Of a stretch of 64,000 nt of DNA, positions 1 through 64,000 are shown in pieces. Each line of letters begins with the position of its first letter. Position 1 is the stretch's first letter. The stretch comes from an uncultured Gammaproteobacteria bacterium (GTDB taxonomy: Bacteria > Pseudomonadota > Gammaproteobacteria > Steroidobacterales > UBA11654). Location of the stretch: positions 25,117-89,116 of the forward strand of contig CALMWC010000007.1 of the NCBI GenBank assembly GCA_937801655.1, written 5' to 3'. The notes under the pieces are model-generated. The model saw only the letters and a program-made list of their open reading frames with translations. It was not told the DNA's origin and ran no database searches. The translations under genes were made by a program, and so were the position numbers.

Positions 1-1
1 G

Positions 2-544
2 AGTGAGATAGCAAAAAGAGGGGGTAGAGGTGTATATCTTATGTGCGGTGTTGGAGAGCTGCCAGATGGAAGATGCAGAAAACATGAACCCATTATGTTT
101 GATGCTTTGGGACAGTTTGAGCGCTATCATGGTGATTTCGGACGATGTGCAGTAATAAAGAACCCAACACAAGAACATATTGAGAAACATCAATCCTTAT
201 TAGAGGGCTGGTCCAAAGCAAAAGAGTACCTCTATCCTGGAGCTACTTATTCACAGATCTCAAATGAAGTTGGTAATTATGTAAGAAAAGTTGGCTTTAG
301 GAATTTTAGGAATCCAATAGTGCACAGTCTAGGACTCGAACATACGGATGACCCAAAATTATTTGGCACTCAGCCGGGTGTAAAAGAAAGCCAAGTATTG
401 GAGAAAAATATGGTGATTAATATTGATATGCCTTTTACAGAAGTTGGTTGGGGTTCAGTTCATATGGAAGATACAATTTTAATAACGAATGACGGTTATA
501 AGAGATTATCAAATTCAAGTTTCGATCTGATAGTCTCAGGATAG
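2..544 (+). CDS. M24 family metallopeptidase/amidohydrolase (Xaa-Pro aminopeptidase fold), 5'-truncated by window edge
   Basis: Frame is open from position 2; pita-bread-fold motifs YHGDFGR, HSLGLEH, NIDMP and HMEDTILIT. Confidence 0.8.
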   Translation, partial: SEIAKRGGRGVYLMCGVGELPDGRCRKHEPIMFDALGQFERYHGDFGRCAVIKNPTQEHIEKHQSLLEGWSKAKEYLYPGATYSQISNEVGNYVRKVGFRNFRNPIVHSLGLEHTDDPKLFGTQPGVKESQVLEKNMVINIDMPFTEVGWGSVHMEDTILITNDGYKRLSNSSFDLIVSG

Positions 545-554
545 GTTTTACTCT

Positions 555-1148
555 TTAGCAAGCAACTCCCCTCCCCCAATTGGAATAACTGGATTGATGA
601 TTGAGCAGTATTTTTCTTGGATAATTTCTATTCTCCTTTATTGCCCAGTCTGCTCTTGAACTATAAAGCTCTACATTATTCCACCACAATTCTGGATTCT
701 TACCCTTTGATGATGCCAATTGAATATCTTTTTTTAACCACCCTAAACCTCCATTATAAGAGCTGAGTATCATTGCCCATTGATTGCATTCATTTTTTGT
801 TTTAATGTTTTTATCAAGCCATTGATCAAACAGCAGCATCGCACGAATCGACCAAATTGGATTGTAGACATTGCCATTAGAAAGCTCAGGATAGAGCTCT
901 TTCAACCAATTTGCAGTTGATGGTGTGAATTGAGTTAGGCCCTCTGCATAAGGACTTTTAGCAAGGTAATCCCATGAACTTTCTTGTTGAATCTGTGAAG
1001 CAAATAATGCAACTGGCGCATCCATTCCCCAAGTAATCCTAGAGTAACGAATCAAATCTCTTTTATATTTAAGGCTATTTCTTGGTTCGGATGCTTGGGT
1101 TGGCATGGATAGAAGTAAGAAAGTAAATAAGAAGAAAAGTTTTTTCAT
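555..1148 (-). CDS. SLT-domain lytic transglycosylase (phage endolysin-like) with N-terminal signal peptide
   Basis: Catalytic QQES motif, GLTQF, SYNGG and ENRNY motifs of SLT enzymes; hydrophobic N-terminus ending PTQA; ATGA overlap with the upstream holin. Confidence 0.88.
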   Translation of the reverse strand: MKKLFFLFTFLLLSMPTQASEPRNSLKYKRDLIRYSRITWGMDAPVALFASQIQQESSWDYLAKSPYAEGLTQFTPSTANWLKELYPELSNGNVYNPIWSIRAMLLFDQWLDKNIKTKNECNQWAMILSSYNGGLGWLKKDIQLASSKGKNPELWWNNVELYSSRADWAIKENRNYPRKILLNHQSSYSNWGRGVAC

Positions 1149-1429
1149 AAGGCAAGAGACATACCAAGGATTGTCGCAAGTATAATCAATGCTCTTCTAA
1201 TTGCGATAGACGATCTTATTATTGGGTCCTGGTCTTTACCATCATTAATTCCAGGCCTCATATGAGGAAATAAAAGATAATCAATCCAATAACCCAGAAT
1301 AGCAGCAAGTGTTACTAAACTTGCTTTATATATAATTACAGGAAGTTGTGCTGGGCTAATTAAAAAAACAGACACTAATAATAGGGTGGTAATGATGGCG
1401 AAAAGACTTCTATTGATTGGTGCTTGCAT
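1145..1429 (-). CDS. Putative 2/3-TM phage holin (Holin_2-3-like)
   Basis: 94 aa with hydrophobic segments; SPAQLPVIIYKASLVTLAAILGYWID..LFP..RP and C-terminal RRALII match the holin family found in Mu-like lysis cassettes; directly upstream of the SLT gene. Confidence 0.8.
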   Translation of the reverse strand: MQAPINRSLFAIITTLLLVSVFLISPAQLPVIIYKASLVTLAAILGYWIDYLLFPHMRPGINDGKDQDPIIRSSIAIRRALIILATILGMSLAL

Positions 1430-1565
1430 AATTATAACCTTCTATTTTAATGATAATACTTTACTAAATTTACATACAGATATGAAAATGATTATAAAAT
1501 TATTCTATTTCATATTTCTTAAATGATAGTATACAGAACATAATTTTGTAAAAAGAGAAAGGTAT

Positions 1566-2393
1566 ATGAATAAAGAACTTCCTCAAGAAATAATCAACTA
1601 TGCGATAGAAATTACTAGTAGTTTTGGCCTCAAACTGTTGACGGCATTGATTGTAGTAATTGTTGGTAAGCAATTAGTTAAAATACTGCTTAAGGTTATC
1701 AAGGTAGCACTGGAGAAAGCTAATACCGAAGAAACCGTTAGAATCTTTATAGCTAATTTACTCAATACTGTGTTTACAGTAATTATATTTGTGGCTGCTA
1801 TCAATCAATTGGGTGTCGAAACTACCTCAATTATTGCTCTTTTAGGTGCGGCTGGTTTAGCGATTGGATTGGCTTTGCAAGGCTCATTAGCTAATTTTGC
1901 AGCTGGAATTCTTATTGTTATTTTTCGACCATATAAAGTGGGTGATTATATAGAAGCCGGCACTAATGTTGGCACAGTTAAAGACATACAAATTTTCTCC
2001 ACTGTTTTAAGAACTCCGGATAATAAGTCCATTGTTGTTCCTAATGGTTCGATAATGGATGGAAGTATTACTAATTATTCCGAACAACCCACTCGACGAA
2101 TAGATATTATTGCAAGTTGCAGTTATGAAGATGACTTGGATAAAGTTAAGGAAGTGCTGCAGACTATACTGGATAATGAAGAGCGAATACTAACCGAACC
2201 TAAACCTCAAATAGCAGTTTCTGAGTTGGCTGAAAGCAGCGTTAATTTTATTGTTAGGCCCTGGGTAAATTCTTCGGATTATCTTCCTGTAATGTATTCT
2301 TTGTTAGAAAATATAAAGAAGACTTTTGATAAAAAAGGGATCTCAATACCCTATCCACAAAGCGATATTCATATTCATGAAAAAAAGGCATAG
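1566..2393 (+). CDS. mscS: Small-conductance mechanosensitive channel
   Basis: GAAGLAIGLALQGSLANFAAG, FRPYKVGD, IVVPNG and IPYPQ motifs. Confidence 0.95.
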   Translation: MNKELPQEIINYAIEITSSFGLKLLTALIVVIVGKQLVKILLKVIKVALEKANTEETVRIFIANLLNTVFTVIIFVAAINQLGVETTSIIALLGAAGLAIGLALQGSLANFAAGILIVIFRPYKVGDYIEAGTNVGTVKDIQIFSTVLRTPDNKSIVVPNGSIMDGSITNYSEQPTRRIDIIASCSYEDDLDKVKEVLQTILDNEERILTEPKPQIAVSELAESSVNFIVRPWVNSSDYLPVMYSLLENIKKTFDKKGISIPYPQSDIHIHEKKA

Positions 2394-2414
2394 CTCTTAA
2401 GAGCTATGCCTTTT
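2383..2414. terminator. Bidirectional intrinsic terminator between convergent mscS and hydantoinase B
   Basis: Perfect palindrome AAAAGGCATAGCTC-TTAA-GAGCTATGCCTTTT with a T-tract on each strand. Confidence 0.85.
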
Positions 2415-2426
2415 GATACTTTAGCC

Positions 2427-4310
2427 TTAAGAAGCGGCTTTTACCCAAGTTTGGAATACTGGATCGCTTGGAGCATCCAAGCCTGTTTCTGCTTTACATC
2501 GTTTTTTGAGTTCAGCAATGCTTTCAAAACCTTTGTCAAACAATTTTGTTTTACCTCTGGCTGCAGACATTTTTGCTCTTAATTTAGTCGTAGCGGCTTT
2601 ACTGACACTATAATCAGGTTTTACAATCACACCATAATTATCTTTAGCACCATTTCTTGTTAGCAATCCTGCTTCTACATCAAAAGCAACTCTTTCAGCA
2701 GGTCTTGTGAATGGATCTCCCCAACCACCTCCACCCCAGGTGACATGGTAAAGTGTGTCGCCTTCACAGACTTGTAACCGATCGCATTTTGAGGGAAGAA
2801 TTTCAGTATCACCATTTTTTCGTACCAATGTTTTAGTACTTCTAGCGCCTGGATGTCCACCATTTACACCCCATGGATAAGTGAGCCATCGGTCGTCATG
2901 TATCGATACATTACCTGGTTCTAAAAACTTATAGGTGGTTGCTAAAGCATTTCCTCCACGATGAAAGCCTGCTCCTCCTGAATCAGGAACGGTATAGTAT
3001 TCTTCTATTACTAAGGGAAAGTAACTTTCAAGAAATTCATTAGGTACGTTGGTAAAGCTGGGCCATAGAGAGTGACCATCAGGACCATCTCCCATTGGTT
3101 TTCCAGGAACACCACCAAATCCAATCATATAGAGTTGATACCATTCACCGTGTTTGTCGTAGCCTGAATACATTAAATGTGGACTGTCTGAAAATCCTGC
3201 TGCACAGAGGAAGTCAGGTGCTCCTTGTCCTAATAAACCACCAAGTACGTCAAATATTCTTCCTAATGCATGAGTCCTACATGAAAGAGCTGCAGGATAT
3301 TTTGGTTTTAAGATACTGCCATCAGGGATTCTGACTTCCATCAGGTCATAAAAACCATCATTAAACATAATTGCAGGGTCGAACACCATAATCATATAAA
3401 CACCACAAAACATTTTAAACATCTCTTCATTTAAGAAGAAATTAATTGAACTGGTTGACTGAGGGTCAGTTCCTTCAAAATCAAAAATAACTTTATCACC
3501 TTGTCTCCACATAGCACATTTGATTTTATAAGGACCCATTTCCAAGCCGTCATCACAAATATAGTCTTCAAAGTATTGTTTTTCAGTAGGCACTGTTGTT
3601 TTAATGAGTTTAGCCATCGCTTTTTTGTTACGATCCAGAAGTTCTTCTAGTGCAGAGTAATAAACGTTGTCACCGAATCTTTCTGCGGCTTCAATAACTC
3701 TTTTTTCTGCTGTTCTAATTGACGCTACAATGGCATTGAAATCACTTCTATTCCATTGAGGTAATCTGCAGTTATGAAGTATTAGCTCAAGCATATCTTC
3801 CTGAAGCACATCTTTTTTGTAAATCTTTGTTGGCGGAATTCTAATACCTTCTTCAAAAATCTCTGTTGCATCTGTCGGTAAACTTCCAGGTACTTTGCCA
3901 CCCACATCAGTCATATGACCAAACATAGCAGCATAACTGATCAGTCTTCCATCTTTAAAAATAGGTCTAAGAAGAAGCCAATCATTATTATGACTGACGG
4001 CACCATTACATGAATAAGGATCACTAGTAAGGAACATATCACCTTCTTCGATAGTCCCTTCAAAAGCTTCTTTAAAGCCATGAATAAAGCTACCAAATTG
4101 TCCTACGACCATCTTACCCTCAAGATTGGCAATCATTGGAAACTCATCACCCTGCTCTCTTATTCCTGGTGACATAGCAGTTCTAAATAACACTGCATCC
4201 ATTTCCCATCTGGCTGAGAACATTGCATTTTCTATCACATCAAGAGTGATGGGATCAAGTTTAACTTTTTTGAATGGTTTATTGTTGGTTTGTATTAATT
4301 TTGCTGTCAT
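2427..4310 (-). CDS. Hydantoinase B/oxoprolinase family subunit (ATP-dependent lactamase beta)
   Basis: RTAMSPGIRE, SDPY...SHNND, HMTDVGG, EEGIRIPP and GGGGWGDP motifs. Confidence 0.93.
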   Translation of the reverse strand: MTAKLIQTNNKPFKKVKLDPITLDVIENAMFSARWEMDAVLFRTAMSPGIREQGDEFPMIANLEGKMVVGQFGSFIHGFKEAFEGTIEEGDMFLTSDPYSCNGAVSHNNDWLLLRPIFKDGRLISYAAMFGHMTDVGGKVPGSLPTDATEIFEEGIRIPPTKIYKKDVLQEDMLELILHNCRLPQWNRSDFNAIVASIRTAEKRVIEAAERFGDNVYYSALEELLDRNKKAMAKLIKTTVPTEKQYFEDYICDDGLEMGPYKIKCAMWRQGDKVIFDFEGTDPQSTSSINFFLNEEMFKMFCGVYMIMVFDPAIMFNDGFYDLMEVRIPDGSILKPKYPAALSCRTHALGRIFDVLGGLLGQGAPDFLCAAGFSDSPHLMYSGYDKHGEWYQLYMIGFGGVPGKPMGDGPDGHSLWPSFTNVPNEFLESYFPLVIEEYYTVPDSGGAGFHRGGNALATTYKFLEPGNVSIHDDRWLTYPWGVNGGHPGARSTKTLVRKNGDTEILPSKCDRLQVCEGDTLYHVTWGGGGWGDPFTRPAERVAFDVEAGLLTRNGAKDNYGVIVKPDYSVSKAATTKLRAKMSAARGKTKLFDKGFESIAELKKRCKAETGLDAPSDPVFQTWVKAAS

Positions 4311-25011: not shown

Positions 25012-25903
25012 CAATAGAATAAAGATTGCAATACAAAAATCAGGCAGGTTGACAGAACACACCATCAGTTTGTTAAAAAAATGTGGACTAATAATCAGTC
25101 ATACTAGAAATCACCTTATTGGCTATGGAGAAAATATGCCATTTGATCTTATGTTTGTTAGAGACGATGATATACCAGGCTTGGTTCAGGATAATTTATG
25201 CACACTGGGTATTGTAGGGATGAATGAGGCACTTGAGAAAAAAATAGAAATAGAGAATTTAGAAAAAGCATCGGCAAACTTTGAAATAGTTTCTAATTTA
25301 GACTTTGGACAATGCAAGTTATCTTTTGCTTATCCAGATGATTCACCTGTTCAAGATTTGAAAAACTTAGAGGGAAAAACTGTTGCCACAAGTTATCCTA
25401 ATATCGTTTCAGACTATATTTCAAAAGCAGGATTAAATATAAGCGTTACTCAGTTCTCAGGTGCGGTAGAGTTGGCTCCAAGTTTAGGCAAGGCAGATCT
25501 TATATGTGATTTAGTTTCTACTGGACAGACACTTAAAGATCATAACTTATCGGAAGGTCAAACGATATTAGAAAGCACTGCTGTAGTCATTAAATCATTG
25601 CAAGCAATGGATAGTATTGAGGAAAACTGGGTCAATAAGCTCATTGAACGAATTCAAGGAGTGCTGCAGGTCAAGGAAAGTAAATACATTATGATGCATG
25701 CACCTAGAGCATCTATAGATTCAATAACTAATTTACTGCCTGGAACAGAATCACCAACCATCATTCCACTTGAAGGCACAAATGAAACAGTTGCTTTGCA
25801 TGTTGTGTGTAAAGAAAATGTTTTTTGGGAAACACTGGAAGATCTTAAGGCCAAAGGTGCTTCATCCATTTTAGTTGTGCCCGTTGAAAAAATGCTAATG
25901 TAA
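25004..25903 (+). CDS. hisG: ATP phosphoribosyltransferase (long form)
   Basis: IAIQKSGRL, VRDDDIP, ATSYP, GAVELAP and DLVSTG motifs; start reassigned to ATG 25004. Confidence 0.96.
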   Translation: MDNNRIKIAIQKSGRLTEHTISLLKKCGLIISHTRNHLIGYGENMPFDLMFVRDDDIPGLVQDNLCTLGIVGMNEALEKKIEIENLEKASANFEIVSNLDFGQCKLSFAYPDDSPVQDLKNLEGKTVATSYPNIVSDYISKAGLNISVTQFSGAVELAPSLGKADLICDLVSTGQTLKDHNLSEGQTILESTAVVIKSLQAMDSIEENWVNKLIERIQGVLQVKESKYIMMHAPRASIDSITNLLPGTESPTIIPLEGTNETVALHVVCKENVFWETLEDLKAKGASSILVVPVEKMLM

Positions 25904-50081: not shown

Positions 50082-50720
50082 ATGTCTCTAGAAATTGTTT
50101 TCCAAATAATTAGTATTCTCATACCTGTTATATTTGCAATAACAGTCCATGAAGTCGCACATGGTGCTGTTGCTAGAATGTTAGGTGATGACACAGCAGA
50201 ACGACAAGGACGATTAACACTCAACCCTATCGCTCATATTGATCCAATAGGAACACTAGTGCTTCCGAGTGTATTGTTGTATATCGGAGGCTTGGTTTTT
50301 GGATGGGCAAAGCCAGTACCTGTAAATGCTTATAAACTAAGAAACCCTAAAAAAGACATGCTCTTTGTAGCAATCGCTGGACCGATAGCTAACCTACTGA
50401 TGGCATTATTGTGGGCATTCATGTTATTTATTCTTCGTTCTATGGATGTCCAGATATCTTCCGAAGCCGTTTATATATTTATAATGACTATGATTCAAAC
50501 AGGTGTTTTTATAAATTTGGTACTCATGTTCTTTAATATGCTCCCTATTCCTCCTTTGGATGGTGGACGGGTGCTAAGAAGTCTTGTAAATGATGATATG
50601 AGTAGAAAAATAGACTCTATAGAACCCTTTGGTATTTTCATCGTGTTGGGATTATTATTGATAGGATTGCTAGACCCTATGTATAGGGCCATTGAATTTA
50701 TTACATCCATTTTGATATGA
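50082..50720 (+). CDS. Site-2 protease (M50) family protein
   Basis: HEVAH, AGPIAN and NMLPIPPLDGG motifs. Confidence 0.93.
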   Translation: MSLEIVFQIISILIPVIFAITVHEVAHGAVARMLGDDTAERQGRLTLNPIAHIDPIGTLVLPSVLLYIGGLVFGWAKPVPVNAYKLRNPKKDMLFVAIAGPIANLLMALLWAFMLFILRSMDVQISSEAVYIFIMTMIQTGVFINLVLMFFNMLPIPPLDGGRVLRSLVNDDMSRKIDSIEPFGIFIVLGLLLIGLLDPMYRAIEFITSILI

Positions 50721-51661
50721 ACAGATCAATATTGATATCAATAATTTCATATTTATGCTTTTTTAATGGTGCTTTTGCATCTTTCCAAATGGATAAGCTT
50801 AGCCACTCATTAGAGAGCATAGAATACATTGAAAAGACGGATTTTAGATCAGAGAGTCTCAACACAAGAGTTAGGTTTATTGTCATACATTACACCTCTT
50901 CAAATTGGGAACAATCACTTAAGATTTTAACAAAAGCTGACTATGAGGTGAGTTCACACTATTTGATACCAGAATCATTTGATGAAAGCTATAAAGAAGA
51001 TGACTTGTTTGTTTACAAAATTGTTGATGAGAATGATCGTGCATGGCATGCAGGTGAAAGCAATTGGCAAGGAAGGAGTCATATTAATGATCAATCTATT
51101 GGCATAGAGTTAGTTAATAATTCTGAGTGCTACTATCAACCGAATAATAAAAAACTAAACTATAAAGAAAATTATATTTGTAGTTTTTACGACTACGATC
51201 CAAAACAAATACAACTATTAATCAAAGCAATAAAACCAATGCTTGAAAGACATGATGAGATAAAGCCAACACATATTATTGGTCACTCAGATATAGCACC
51301 CAATAGAAAATATGATCCAGGTCCTCGTTTTCCATGGTATACGCTCTACCAAAATGGTATTGGTGCATGGTATGACAATGAGACTGTTGATAAATACTGG
51401 CGTCAGTTTACAACAACAAAGATGCCATCAACTCTTGATATTCAATGTGCCTTAAGAAAGTATGGCTATGAGGTGGATTTAACTGGGACAGAAGACGAAC
51501 AGACATATGCTGTGGTGAGAGCCTTCCATTATCATTTTCAGTCATGGAATAACAAAGGAGATATTGATGTCGGCACAGTATCAACATTGTGGGCTCTGTT
51601 GGAAAAGTATAGGCCTGATGTTCTTGATAGTAATTCAAAAATTGTCTGTCTGGAGGATTAA
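50717..51661 (+). CDS. N-acetylmuramoyl-L-alanine amidase (AmiD-like)
   Basis: IHYT, VSSHYLI, RAWHAG, SIGIE and GHSDIAP.RK.DPGP.FPW motifs; C-terminal PG-binding-like domain. Confidence 0.9.
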   Translation: MNRSILISIISYLCFFNGAFASFQMDKLSHSLESIEYIEKTDFRSESLNTRVRFIVIHYTSSNWEQSLKILTKADYEVSSHYLIPESFDESYKEDDLFVYKIVDENDRAWHAGESNWQGRSHINDQSIGIELVNNSECYYQPNNKKLNYKENYICSFYDYDPKQIQLLIKAIKPMLERHDEIKPTHIIGHSDIAPNRKYDPGPRFPWYTLYQNGIGAWYDNETVDKYWRQFTTTKMPSTLDIQCALRKYGYEVDLTGTEDEQTYAVVRAFHYHFQSWNNKGDIDVGTVSTLWALLEKYRPDVLDSNSKIVCLED

Positions 51662-62126: not shown

Positions 62127-62789
62127 TTATTTATTTATATATTTTAATGTTTTATCAAATACTTCATTAATTGTTAATTTATCTGTATCTATTATATATG
62201 CATCAGTAGGTATAACTAATGGTGATATCTTTCTAGATACATCTCTACTATCTCTATTGTCTAACTCTTCAATTAGATGCGGAAGGCTAACATTAATTCC
62301 CTTCTGCTTCAACTGCTTATGTCTTCTTTGAGCTTTAATTTCATTTGAAGCTGTTAAGAATATTTTTATTTGTGAATTTTTAAATATAACGCTTCCCATA
62401 TCTCTGCCTTCAGCAATTAGACCAGGTTCTTTGTAAAAGGATCTCTGTAATCCTATCAAAGATTTTCTAACATCAATATTTGATGAAATTATTGATGCTC
62501 GTGTAGCACATTTCTCATTATTAATTTCTTCAGTAATATCTTTATCGTTACAGATAATTTTAAATTCCTTATTAGCAGTTATAAATCTAATATTTAGAAT
62601 AGAGATAAGAGATATGATTTCTTTAATATTATCAGTGTTAATGTTTTCAATTTCAGATAAGTATGCAACTGCCCTGTATATAGATCCACTATTTAAATAG
62701 TTAAGACATAAGTGATTTGCTAGTGATAATGCAAGCGTACCCTTACCTACTCCACTAGGACCGTCTATAGTGATTATCTGTAAATTCAT
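62127..62789 (-). CDS. cmk: Cytidylate kinase
   Basis: ITIDGPSGVGKGT, EGRDMG and KIFLTAS motifs. Confidence 0.96.
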   Translation of the reverse strand: MNLQIITIDGPSGVGKGTLALSLANHLCLNYLNSGSIYRAVAYLSEIENINTDNIKEIISLISILNIRFITANKEFKIICNDKDITEEINNEKCATRASIISSNIDVRKSLIGLQRSFYKEPGLIAEGRDMGSVIFKNSQIKIFLTASNEIKAQRRHKQLKQKGINVSLPHLIEELDNRDSRDVSRKISPLVIPTDAYIIDTDKLTINEVFDKTLKYINK

Positions 62790-64000
62790 AATTCTTTTTG
62801 AATGATATTCATTCCAATTGAATTCATAAGAGTAATAAATGATGGGAAAGAAGTATTAATATTCTCACAGTTTTCTACTTCTATTTTTTCTTTTGCAACC
62901 GATGAGGCAACCAATGCCGTCATAGCGATTCGATGATCCCCAAAAGAATCAACTAAGCCCCCACTGATAGTTCCACCTTTTATTATTAATCCATCTTGAT
63001 ACTCATTAACTTCTACAGATAGATTTTTAAGTAGATCTACCATAGATTTAATTCTATCAGATTCCTTAAAGCGTAATTCTTCAGCGTTTCTTATTGTGGT
63101 TTCACCGGTAGCAACAGACGCAGCTAAAAATATTAATGGAAGTTCATCAATTGCTAGTGAGATAAGTTCATTTGGAACTTTTATACCAATTAGTTTAGAG
63201 GAAGAAACTATTACATTCCCAGTCGCTTCATAACTATTATTAGTAATCTCTATATCAATATCTGCACCCATAAGTTGAAGAATATTTATCAATCCTGTTC
63301 TAGTTGGGTTTAGCCCTACATCACGAATTACTATTCTAGAATCTTCTGATAATAATGCTGCAATAATAAAAAAAGATGCAGATGAAAAATCACCAGGCAC
63401 TTTAATTATATTTGGACTTTGAAGTCTTCCAGGATTAACTTCAATGCTATTTTTATTTTAGATATTGGGTAATTAAAGAGTCCCAACATATTTTCAGTGT
63501 GATCTCTAGTTACTGTATCTGTGTGAAGAATGGTCTTATTTCTACAAAATAATGAAGCTAGAATTATCGCAGATTTTATTTGAGCACTAGGTATATTAAG
63601 CTTGTAGTCAATTCCATTTAATGAACCTAGAGGCGGCTTAATTGTTACTGGTGCATTACCATTATTAGTTGAAATATTAGCACCCATTAGTCTTAGAGGA
63701 GAAGCAACTCTCTCCATTGGCCTCTTAAGCAATGAATTATCACCGGTTAATGTAGTGTTAAATTTTTGGGATGCTAGTATGCCCATGAATAATCTTATAG
63801 ATGTACCAGAGTTGCCAAAATCTAGTTCCTTATTTGGTTCTGATAATCCATCTATACCAAGACCTTTTATTTCTATGCACTTTTGATTAGCCACTATATT
63901 TAATCCAAGTGACTTACTGACATCAATTGTTCGCCTAACATCTTCAGATTCCAGTAAGTTATGTATTGTCGTCTGACCTTCGCATAGCATAGAGAATATT
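62786..64000 (-). pseudogene. aroA: EPSP synthase, 5'-truncated by window, one apparent frameshift near 63457 (probably artefact)
   Basis: GNSGTSIRL, RPMERV, SAQIKS and RDHTE in one frame; PGDFSSA, DELP, KESDRI and DHRIAM in another; the join falls in an A-run. Confidence 0.93.

Follow-up and report, generated by a model that had tools for sequence, protein, structure and literature searches.

A two-gene lysis cassette of phage origin, kept under selection in a streamlined marine gammaproteobacterial genus

We analyzed a 64,000-nucleotide stretch of DNA (the window) from an uncultured marine gammaproteobacterium and found in it a gene for a small holin-like membrane protein followed directly by a gene for a transglycosylase with an SLT domain; the two genes are referred to below as the pair. 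Our comparisons show that the pair is of phage ancestry, best explained as the lysis cassette of a B3/BcepMu-type transposable phage, and that every other phage gene, spanin genes included, has been lost. They also show that purifying selection on the pair is as strong as that on the essential gene lysS, and that the pair has moved among three chromosomal contexts. These data fit one capture event in an uncultured marine gammaproteobacterial genus with streamlined genomes, which now keeps the pair by selection as an accessory module. Domestication of the pair is well supported, and there is firm ground for saying that the cell produces, or is able to produce, a family-1 lytic transglycosylase exported by Sec together with a small membrane protein of phage type, both preserved by selection. 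The best explanation of the whole would be a captured phage cassette that has become a selected host module acting as triggered self-lysis, to which we give a probability of roughly 0.45.

Host-retained phage lysis genes are already known from type 10 secretion, from pyocin and gene transfer agent (GTA) release and from DLP12, mostly in the large genomes of pathogens or model organisms and usually beside prophage remains or cargo genes. What differs here is that a bare two-gene cassette has been retained throughout the time in which an abundant, uncultured marine lineage diversified; its genome measures about 1.4 Mb, and each gene kept in it is expected to pay its way. Also distinctive are selection at the level of a tRNA synthetase, a rebuilt secretion signal, lost spanins, three genomic contexts and a newly seen island cassette. 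Sister species with and without the pair provide a natural experiment on how cells use a holin together with a wall-cutting enzyme, which bears on phage defence and cell lysis, and hence on carbon release, in ocean bacteria. No publication on the pair of this genus was found in the literature searched, subscription journals lying outside its coverage.

The window spans positions 25117 to 89116 of a 94-kb contig of assembly G000 (1.40 Mb in 24 contigs, 82% complete). Labels beginning with G denote genomes of the genus, and labels beginning with L denote loci or metagenome contigs.

Identity of the two proteins

The holin-like protein matched the Pfam family PF13272 (Holin_2-3) with an E-value of 2e-19 (70.2 bits against a cut-off of 27) and the phage family phrog_1528, "holin", at 2e-21. 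These hidden Markov model matches bear out the holin assignment made in an earlier note, which had been written from the letters of the window alone and had suggested a domesticated phage-type lysis cassette. The AlphaFold2 (AF2) model has a predicted local distance difference test (pLDDT) score of 82 and three helices (residues 4-24, 26-53 and 69-93), with the C-terminus falling within the last of them. Together with the hydropathy profile, it fits a small membrane protein of two to three helices encoded just upstream of an endolysin gene. The protein retains the residues found family-wide: K35, Y47-W48, D50, F54-P55, R58-P59 and R78-R79. A basic N-terminal extension is present in most phage holins and absent from the holins of the genus and from their two nearest viral relatives. 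From the likeness to phage holins we infer a predicted membrane-lesion or depolarising activity. A full-text literature search for "Holin_2-3" found no experimental work on PF13272.

The second protein matched PF01464 (SLT) at 7.8e-12 (45.2 bits, cut-off 21.3) and, at 4e-43, the family phrog_669, annotated as "endolysin". A sequence search against solved structures returned no match at E <= 0.01, and a fold search was used instead. The AF2 model (pLDDT 92.6) gave as top Foldseek matches the catalytic modules of MltF (query-normalized TM-score, TMq, 0.63-0.71), MltC, Slt70, MltD and MltE. Glu56-Ser57 (QQES) is invariant across a 46-sequence alignment, and the catalytic Glu motif reported in the earlier note is thus intact. 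Judged by these matches, the enzyme is a family-1 lytic transglycosylase predicted to be able to form 1,6-anhydro-MurNAc products. Elsewhere, the genome encodes an Amidase_2 (AmpD/AmiD-like) protein (window 50717-51661, plus strand) and an AmpG-like major facilitator superfamily protein (G000:C3:56957-58240), so the cell can probably recycle anhydro-muropeptides released by transglycosylases.

Phage ancestry and loss of the other phage genes

The nearest phage relatives of the SLT enzyme are endolysins of transposable phages of Pseudomonas (B3/JBD25 type), Ralstonia and Burkholderia and of jumbo phage NCTB, all 42-52% identical, and residues 8-60 of the holin-like protein are 48-60% identical to the product of the gene adjoining those phage endolysin genes. 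A viral-contig scan with the single SLT sequence found no relative; an alignment-based scan succeeded, yielding at least 520 relatives in IMG/VR, mostly on 32-40-kb contigs and none above 52% identity. A holin homologue lies just upstream of the SLT gene in at least 75 of 82 viral or phage loci, and the annotation of phage B3 runs from holin through endolysin, ORF26 and Rz/Rz1 to terminase. The link to Mu-like phage cassettes drawn in the earlier note therefore stands for the B3/BcepMu type and fails for Mu itself, whose lysis scheme is different and holin-less (PMC9239132).

As the earlier note had held, the cassette is an orphan. A Pfam scan found no phage, integrase or transposase family among the 62 other open reading frames (ORFs) of the window, nor among the 25 ORFs in the 25 kb just left of it on the same contig, where the note had allowed for phage genes. 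These flanking ORFs encode housekeeping and metabolic proteins, and no phage gene was found within about 89 kb around the pair. We also searched the whole G000 assembly with 5,499 ORFs translated from 82 viral or phage loci that carry a homologous cassette. At the locus of the pair, only the SLT (82) and holin (75) ORFs matched, and six other viral ORFs matched scattered sites elsewhere in the assembly, away from the pair. Three 20-kb loci from the genus likewise matched viral ORFs almost solely at the pair, with one extra ORF match just upstream in L065. The recombinases of G000 comprise two Xer-like proteins and one further tyrosine integrase amid metabolic genes. As a control, 400 sampled genomes of the class contained only two other PF13272 carriers above the cut-off, and in both the gene sits in 20 kb of Mu-like prophage with matches to viral ORFs along its whole length.

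Spanin genes, which the earlier note gave as the normal continuation of a phage cassette, were found beside the pair neither by the viral-ORF search nor by inspection of the junctions, confirming their loss; the stop codons of the SLT gene and the adjacent M24 gene are 10 nt apart. A functional phage lysis cassette sits inside a phage genome and continues into spanin genes, and the pair does neither. Comparison of filled and empty lysS/ygfZ junctions, a site described below, revealed no direct repeats or att-like sites.

Distribution and selection

PF13272 was detected in 11 of the 17 species representatives of the genus, in none of three sister-genus genomes and in none of 21 other families of the order. 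Wherever a genus contig continues, an SLT gene lies beside the PF13272 gene, and genus-type copies were found in 40 marine metagenome contigs. A motif pattern scan of 185,579 species genomes returned only 10 loci, all matching the genus by sequence and neighbours. In a collection of 5.8 billion proteins, 47 clusters were 62-98% identical to the query, all with PF13272, on hundreds of contigs. The nine SLT enzymes of the genus formed one clade in a tree with 75 viral or phage sequences (support 100/98, stem length 0.72), and the genus enzymes did so again when 38 metagenome copies were added (99/98).

The ratio of nonsynonymous to synonymous divergence (dN/dS) was calculated by the Nei-Gojobori method (NG86) for pairs with unsaturated dS, dS being saturated between clades. 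It was 0.02-0.05 for the holin gene (0.054 at dS 0.35 between G000 and G014; 0.026 between G002 and G011), 0.04-0.14 for the SLT gene and 0.04-0.07 for the neighbouring essential lysS. Both genes are intact in every species copy of the genus that is not cut by a contig end. The G+C content (GC) of the SLT and holin genes is 0.372 and 0.358, compared with 0.356 ± 0.023 for 42 genes of the window; the third-position GC (GC3) of the SLT gene, 0.318, is slightly above the window range of 0.197-0.298.

Apart from this slightly high GC3, the base composition is host-like, as the earlier note had stated. Its proposal of a domesticated host module rather than a decaying remnant is likewise borne out by residence in the genus, including close relatives of the source genome, by dN/dS values well below 1 and by a phylogeny that places the copies in a single genus clade, with phage homologues at most 52% identical. 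The only disrupted copy among the 40 genus-type contigs is L193:4746-5543, in which holin and SLT genes are fused into a single 265-aa ORF; about 55 unrelated residues there replace the last holin helix and the SLT N-terminus, including the region of the catalytic Glu.

Signal peptide of the transglycosylase

By inspection, the SLT enzyme begins with MKK, followed by a 12-residue L/F-rich core, a proline at -4 and an alanine at -1 (TQA↓SE), which is a textbook cleavable leader and agrees with the Sec-type signal peptide of the earlier note. All nine SLT enzymes of the genus have, again by inspection, an L/F/I-rich core of 12-13 residues, after which come a proline and a small-x-Ala site. The corresponding uncharged segment at the N-terminus of 81 viral homologues is longer, with a median of 19 residues, and rich in G/A/S/T (fraction 0.42, versus 0.08-0.31 in the genus cores). 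Transglycosylase endolysins of Pseudomonas Mu-like siphophages are described as signal-anchor-release (SAR) endolysins by Chamblee et al. (PMC9239132). Judged heuristically and by inspection, the genus enzymes lack the weakly hydrophobic, charge-free, G/A/S/T-rich segment of about 18-22 residues that is typical of that class. By this comparison, a long SAR-like leader in the phages is predicted to have been replaced by a short classical cleavable Sec signal peptide in the genus. Low GC could account for the composition of the genus leader, but not for its length.

Genomic contexts of the pair

The pair occupies three genomic contexts. Type A, found in nine species and 21 of 45 metagenome loci, has prfB, lysS, holin and SLT in succession, followed by convergent ygfZ and sdhC, deep within a core neighbourhood of pyrG, kdsA, eno, ftsB ... 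lepA, lepB, rnc, era and recO. The gene directly upstream of the pair is lysS in 19 of the 21 metagenome loci of this type. In these 19 loci and the nine species, the holin gene starts 8-35 nt past the lysS stop codon, in most cases behind the ribosome site GGAG, and nothing resembling a terminator was found between the two genes.

Type B, with the pair between mscS and either M24 or CMD, comprises this genome, G014 and eight metagenome loci. In L164 and L165 the pair is present and M24 absent, and in G002 and G004 CMD abuts mscS without M24 and without the pair. The earlier note had suggested that a promoter shared with mscS could tie the pair to osmotic stress. With the mscS context in only two of the 11 pair-bearing species and 8 of 40 metagenome contigs, such a tie is not a general property of the pair.

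Type C consists of 11 metagenome loci in which the pair lies in the lysS/ygfZ junction in the opposite orientation, inside a variable island (examples of the island are L179:435-3391, L175:301-2409 and L182:998-3106). In nine of them (L167-L171, L173, L174, L177 and L179), an ORF of 83 aa, orf83, lies 3-6 nt upstream of the holin gene. Its product (e.g., L179:3480-3731, plus strand) is amphipathic near its N-terminus and continues through a PPTIVPPP linker into a beta-rich tail. It gave no Pfam or PADLOC family, no usable ESM Atlas match and no homologue in G000, and the ancestral cassette may have included it as a third component. An RCK ion channel of the CASTOR/POLLUX type (621-626 aa) adjoins the pair in six of the 11 loci, upstream in three and overlapping the SLT stop codon in three (e.g., L168:202-2082, L169:251-2131, L175:3412-5277 and L177:1093-2499). 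That the channel gene has stayed next to the pair through rearrangements suggests a functional link. None of the 17 species genomes yielded the channel, in a search with no positive control among them. Five type C loci carry a DUF2779/Cas4-like nuclease and four a KAP NTPase; the two NTPases scanned, from L179 and L175, matched PADLOC PifA (1e-32 and 1e-30) as well as PDC-S20 and QatA. A GIY-YIG protein homologous to PD-T4-3 occurs in two loci, L179 and L175, with a match of 5e-32 for the one scanned, L179.

In a phage-rooted tree of SLT enzymes, type B is basal, type C forms three successive groups and type A is a single nested clade (99/95), so type A looks as if it arose a single time, from an ancestor of the island type. 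Empty lysS/ygfZ junctions were seen in all three sister-genus genomes and in G000, G004, G005, G006 and G014; G001 and G012, whose contigs end at the lysS 3' end, could not be scored there, nor could G006 at the mscS site, where a 6.4-kb region is missing. The SLT enzyme of G007 groups with clade III and its LysS with clade I, and the proportion of synonymous differences (pS) between G007 and G013 is 0.46 for the SLT gene versus 0.77 for lysS, which points to exchange of the pair within the genus. Contigs of many metagenome-assembled genomes (MAGs) break in or beside the pair or at the lysS 3' end (G014:C77/C34, G010:C110, G008:C28, G011:C1, G009:C6, G001:C16 and G012:C23). This suggests population-level variation at the site, where an island may have gone unassembled.

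LysS and the holin-like protein also share a short string. LysS ends in ...DVLLFPHMR, and the holin-like protein contains DYLLFPHMRPG (window 1250-1275; L036:1498-1560, the lysS 3' end of G000). An identical 17-nt string is common to the lysS 3' end and the holin gene in both G000 and G015, and sharing of at least 15 nt with lysS was reached by 1 in 2,000 random 285-nt segments. Phage holins have LFPYARP at the position of LFPHMRP, the H-M being specific to the genus. The identity could reflect coincidence, gene conversion or rearrangement microhomology.

Locus and expression

The features of the locus are listed in Table 1. ORF coordinates agree with the intact two-gene unit described in the earlier note: the holin-like gene is upstream and overlaps the SLT gene by 4 nt (ATGA), the convergent M24 gene ends at 544, and the divergent mscS starts at 1566, leaving 136 nt between it and the holin-like gene. 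The two flanking genes match the Pfam profiles Peptidase_M24 and MscS. At least 96% of words sampled from window positions 1-2500 are present in 14 public DNA runs, some of which are possibly the source sample; this recurrence indicates that the arrangement is not an assembly chimera.

Table 1. Coordinates of the pair and associated features in the window
Feature	Position	Strand	Evidence
Holin-like membrane protein, 94 aa	1145..1429	-	PF13272, phrog_1528, AF2 three helices, kept family residues, dN/dS 0.02-0.05
Family-1 lytic transglycosylase (SLT domain), 197 aa, of phage-endolysin descent	555..1148	-	PF01464, phrog_669, AF2, Foldseek, dN/dS 0.04-0.14
Residues 1-19 of the SLT enzyme, predicted Sec signal peptide cleaved by signal peptidase I at TQA↓SE	1092..1148	-	Inspection
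Catalytic Glu56 codon (E-S motif, QQES)	981..983	-	Invariant in the 46-sequence alignment and in a second alignment
AT-rich intergenic region common to the pair and divergent mscS	1430..1565	.	Promoter consensus scan; region conserved in G014

A consensus scan of the intergenic region gave a weak promoter-like site for the pair on the minus strand (1552->1523, TTTACA-18-TATCAT); the region held two sites in all, compared with 8.4 expected by chance. By eye, no LexA-type or other common operator was recognised upstream of the holin gene. Metatranscriptome contigs of low depth, from three runs in two studies, cover positions 456-683, 909-1092 and about 1119-1323, and none covers 1324-1617, which is no evidence of absence. 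Contigs from RNA libraries show presence, neither level nor strand, and DNA carry-over is possible; the evidence that the pair is expressed is weak.

Two split genes lie elsewhere on the contig. The EPSP synthase gene aroA is divided between adjacent minus-strand ORFs at window 62786-63400 and 63406-63990 (profile positions 233-415 and 29-210), reflecting a stop, a frameshift or an assembly error. Left of the window, a TonB-dependent receptor (G000:C7:10355-12977; L002) consists of two overlapping ORFs of 736 and 142 aa.

Host function

In the explanation we favour, the SLT enzyme would be exported by Sec, lose its signal peptide and reside in the periplasm, where it would cut glycan strands to 1,6-anhydro-MurNAc ends. 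Because the enzyme carries its own export signal, the three-helix membrane protein would not be needed as an export pore. By analogy with pinholins, it most likely acts by depolarisation. At a critical level, or upon a drop in membrane potential, it would depolarise the inner membrane, and the pre-exported enzyme would then destroy the wall. As spanins are missing, rupture of the outer membrane would be left to turgor or shear alone. Host transcription would drive the pair, through prfB-lysS read-through in most species and from its own promoter region beside mscS in this genome. The most likely use, which we infer tentatively and, taken alone, at somewhat less than even odds, would be triggered self-lysis that aborts a phage infection or otherwise sacrifices the cell.

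Triggered self-lysis is favoured because the lethal parts (Glu56 and the holin residues) are intact and because the pair behaves like a defence gene: it is patchy, occupies a hot-spot site, is exchanged, coincides with assembly breaks and has PifA-like or PD-T4-3 neighbours in some relatives. The defence-island context in related contigs lends indirect support to abortive infection. With respect to the usual marks of defence genes, the pair is present in 11 of 17 species and its junction is variable; a KAP NTPase adjoins it in 4 of 11 island contigs and a PD-T4-3 homologue occurs in 2, and the remaining 29 genus-type contigs and G000 have no defence gene next to it.

Several observations weigh against self-lysis. 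PADLOC assigned no family to either protein, the pair in this genome has no gene for a sensor or regulator alongside it, and no island partner of type C has a homologue in G000. Of the 40 genus-type metagenome loci, only 4 have known defence genes next to the pair, and the 11 species loci have none. A holin gene that starts so close behind lysS, with no terminator-like site between them, suggests that the pair is transcribed constitutively along with an essential operon, an awkward arrangement for a lethal holin, and a classical cleavable leader would leave free enzyme in the periplasm at all times, as with housekeeping transglycosylases. The pair also comes without a spanin. No PF13272 member has been experimentally proven to be a holin in the literature found, those of KS10 (PMC2628397) and B3 being annotations only. 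Altruistic lysis would, moreover, be harder to select in free-living plankton.

In a more specific form of this explanation, which we consider unlikely, the pair would be a minimal suicide switch that does its own sensing, and would represent a new type of defence against phages, with a pre-exported transglycosylase and a pinholin that would serve as a tripwire for loss of membrane potential. The island cassette (orf83, holin, SLT and RCK channel) would have been reduced once to the bare pair and wired to prfB-lysS. Any membrane-perturbing phage would then set off premature lysis, in a lineage so streamlined that MltG would also have been lost.

A close rival to self-lysis, if somewhat unlikely itself, is non-lytic wall maintenance, in which the enzyme would supplement the few transglycosylases of the host in glycan turnover, septum splitting or vesicle control, and the membrane protein would regulate or anchor it without killing at native levels. 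Selection as strong as that on lysS, the position directly behind prfB-lysS with no terminator-like site in most species, the classical signal peptide in place of a SAR-like leader, and the lack of a sensor or PADLOC match all suit such a role. YceG/MltG is present in most bacteria. In the genus it was found in 1 of 17 genomes and in none of the six high-quality ones. In the 82%-complete G000 assembly, the SLT enzyme is the only confident PF01464 protein; the other transglycosylases are an SLT_2/MltB-like gene and an RlpA-like gene, and MltA was not found. The DLP12 holin-endolysin-spanin operon of E. coli, which is reported to take part in wall maintenance and to modulate vesiculation (PMC7918800), provides a precedent. 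Yet the pair is dispensable: its sites are empty in at least three species whose genomes are 91-95% complete and have no other SLT-domain gene, and the genomes without the pair also lack MltG. Housekeeping genes are not typically patchy, placed in islands or exchanged within a genus as the pair is, and wall maintenance leaves the stronger constraint on the holin than on the enzyme unexplained. A complementary distribution of the pair and MltG was considered and rejected, MltG being missing almost throughout the genus.

The remaining alternatives assign the pair to export, to a distant element or to no function. Release in the manner of type 10 secretion, with local wall opening or lysis of a subpopulation freeing protein, vesicles or DNA, was raised in the earlier note and has lost ground; we regard it as improbable. 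Phage-derived holin and peptidoglycan hydrolase systems do export or release cargo (PMC9527704, PMC10847048 and PMC13284979), and the pair is intact and under selection. However, the type 10 endolysins ChiX and TtsA have no signal peptide and need the holin for export (PMC9527704), whereas the SLT enzyme carries a signal peptide itself. None of the genes next to the pair is conserved from one context to another, which, together with that signal, makes secretion of a dedicated cargo unlikely. No spanin is present either. The adjacent M24 protein has no signal peptide and is absent beside the pair in L164 and L165, for which reasons M24 was rejected as co-inserted cargo. The combination typical of type 10 secretion, a hydrolase without signal peptide, export through the holin and a cargo gene alongside, is thus absent.

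Still less probable is a lysis module serving an unlinked phage-like element such as a GTA, a tailocin or a satellite. Split arrangements of this kind exist in the lysis genes of the Rhodobacter GTA and in pyocin Hol/Lys, and an assembly that is 82% complete may lack such an element, as MAGs often do. On the other hand, of the ORFs from 82 Mu-like loci only SLT, holin and the six scattered ones matched the assembly, although no dedicated genome-wide search for capsid, tail or terminase genes was made, and the third tyrosine recombinase lies amid metabolic genes. We give the least credence to a functionless prophage remnant that has not yet decayed. Phage ancestry and the disrupted L193 copy, 1 of the 40 genus-type metagenome copies, are what such a remnant might show, but dN/dS stays at 0.02-0.14 with dS saturated between clades, every genus copy not cut by a contig end has both genes intact, composition is ameliorated to host values, phage homologues are no more than 52% identical and the trees give no support for recent independent phage insertions.

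Comparison with known systems

The pair is closest to the cassette of phages B3, BcepMu and KS10 (PF13272 holin, SLT endolysin and Rz/Rz1), with which it has in common both homologues, the order of holin then SLT, the catalytic Glu, two invariant Cys and the holin motifs. Unlike that cassette, it has no spanins or other phage genes, and its lysS context leaves no room for a phage late promoter. The genus leader is 12-13 residues long and strongly hydrophobic, whereas the viral segment has a median of 19 residues and is G/A/S/T-rich; most phage holins carry the basic N-terminal extension that the genus holin lacks; and the pair is host-like in composition and conserved across the genus.

Among host-kept modules, the DLP12 lysis operon of E. 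coli K-12 (S-R-Rz/Rz1) resembles the pair as a phage lysis module with a proposed non-phage role (PMC7918800). It differs in that the defective prophage around it can still be recognised, its spanins remain, its enzyme is of the lysozyme type and it belongs to one species, whereas the pair is found by itself among core-genome genes and its divergence has followed that of an entire genus. In type 10 secretion (Serratia ChiW/ChiX, Salmonella TtsA and Yersinia Tc release), a phage-derived holin and hydrolase are likewise used by the cell, but the hydrolases have no signal peptide, lie beside cargo and are often accompanied by a spanin (PMC9527704); the pair has a Sec-type enzyme, no conserved cargo gene and no spanin. 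With pinholin and SAR-endolysin systems, the pair would share the logic that the enzyme reaches the periplasm without the holin, whose role is likely depolarisation, although its leader looks cleavable rather than of the signal-anchor-release kind. Abortive-infection island genes, such as the KAP NTPases that adjoin the pair in 4 of 11 island contigs and are PifA-like in the two scanned, are similarly patchy, located in hot spots and exchanged. The pair differs from them in having no PADLOC model, no known sensor and, in this genome and most species, no defence gene nearby.

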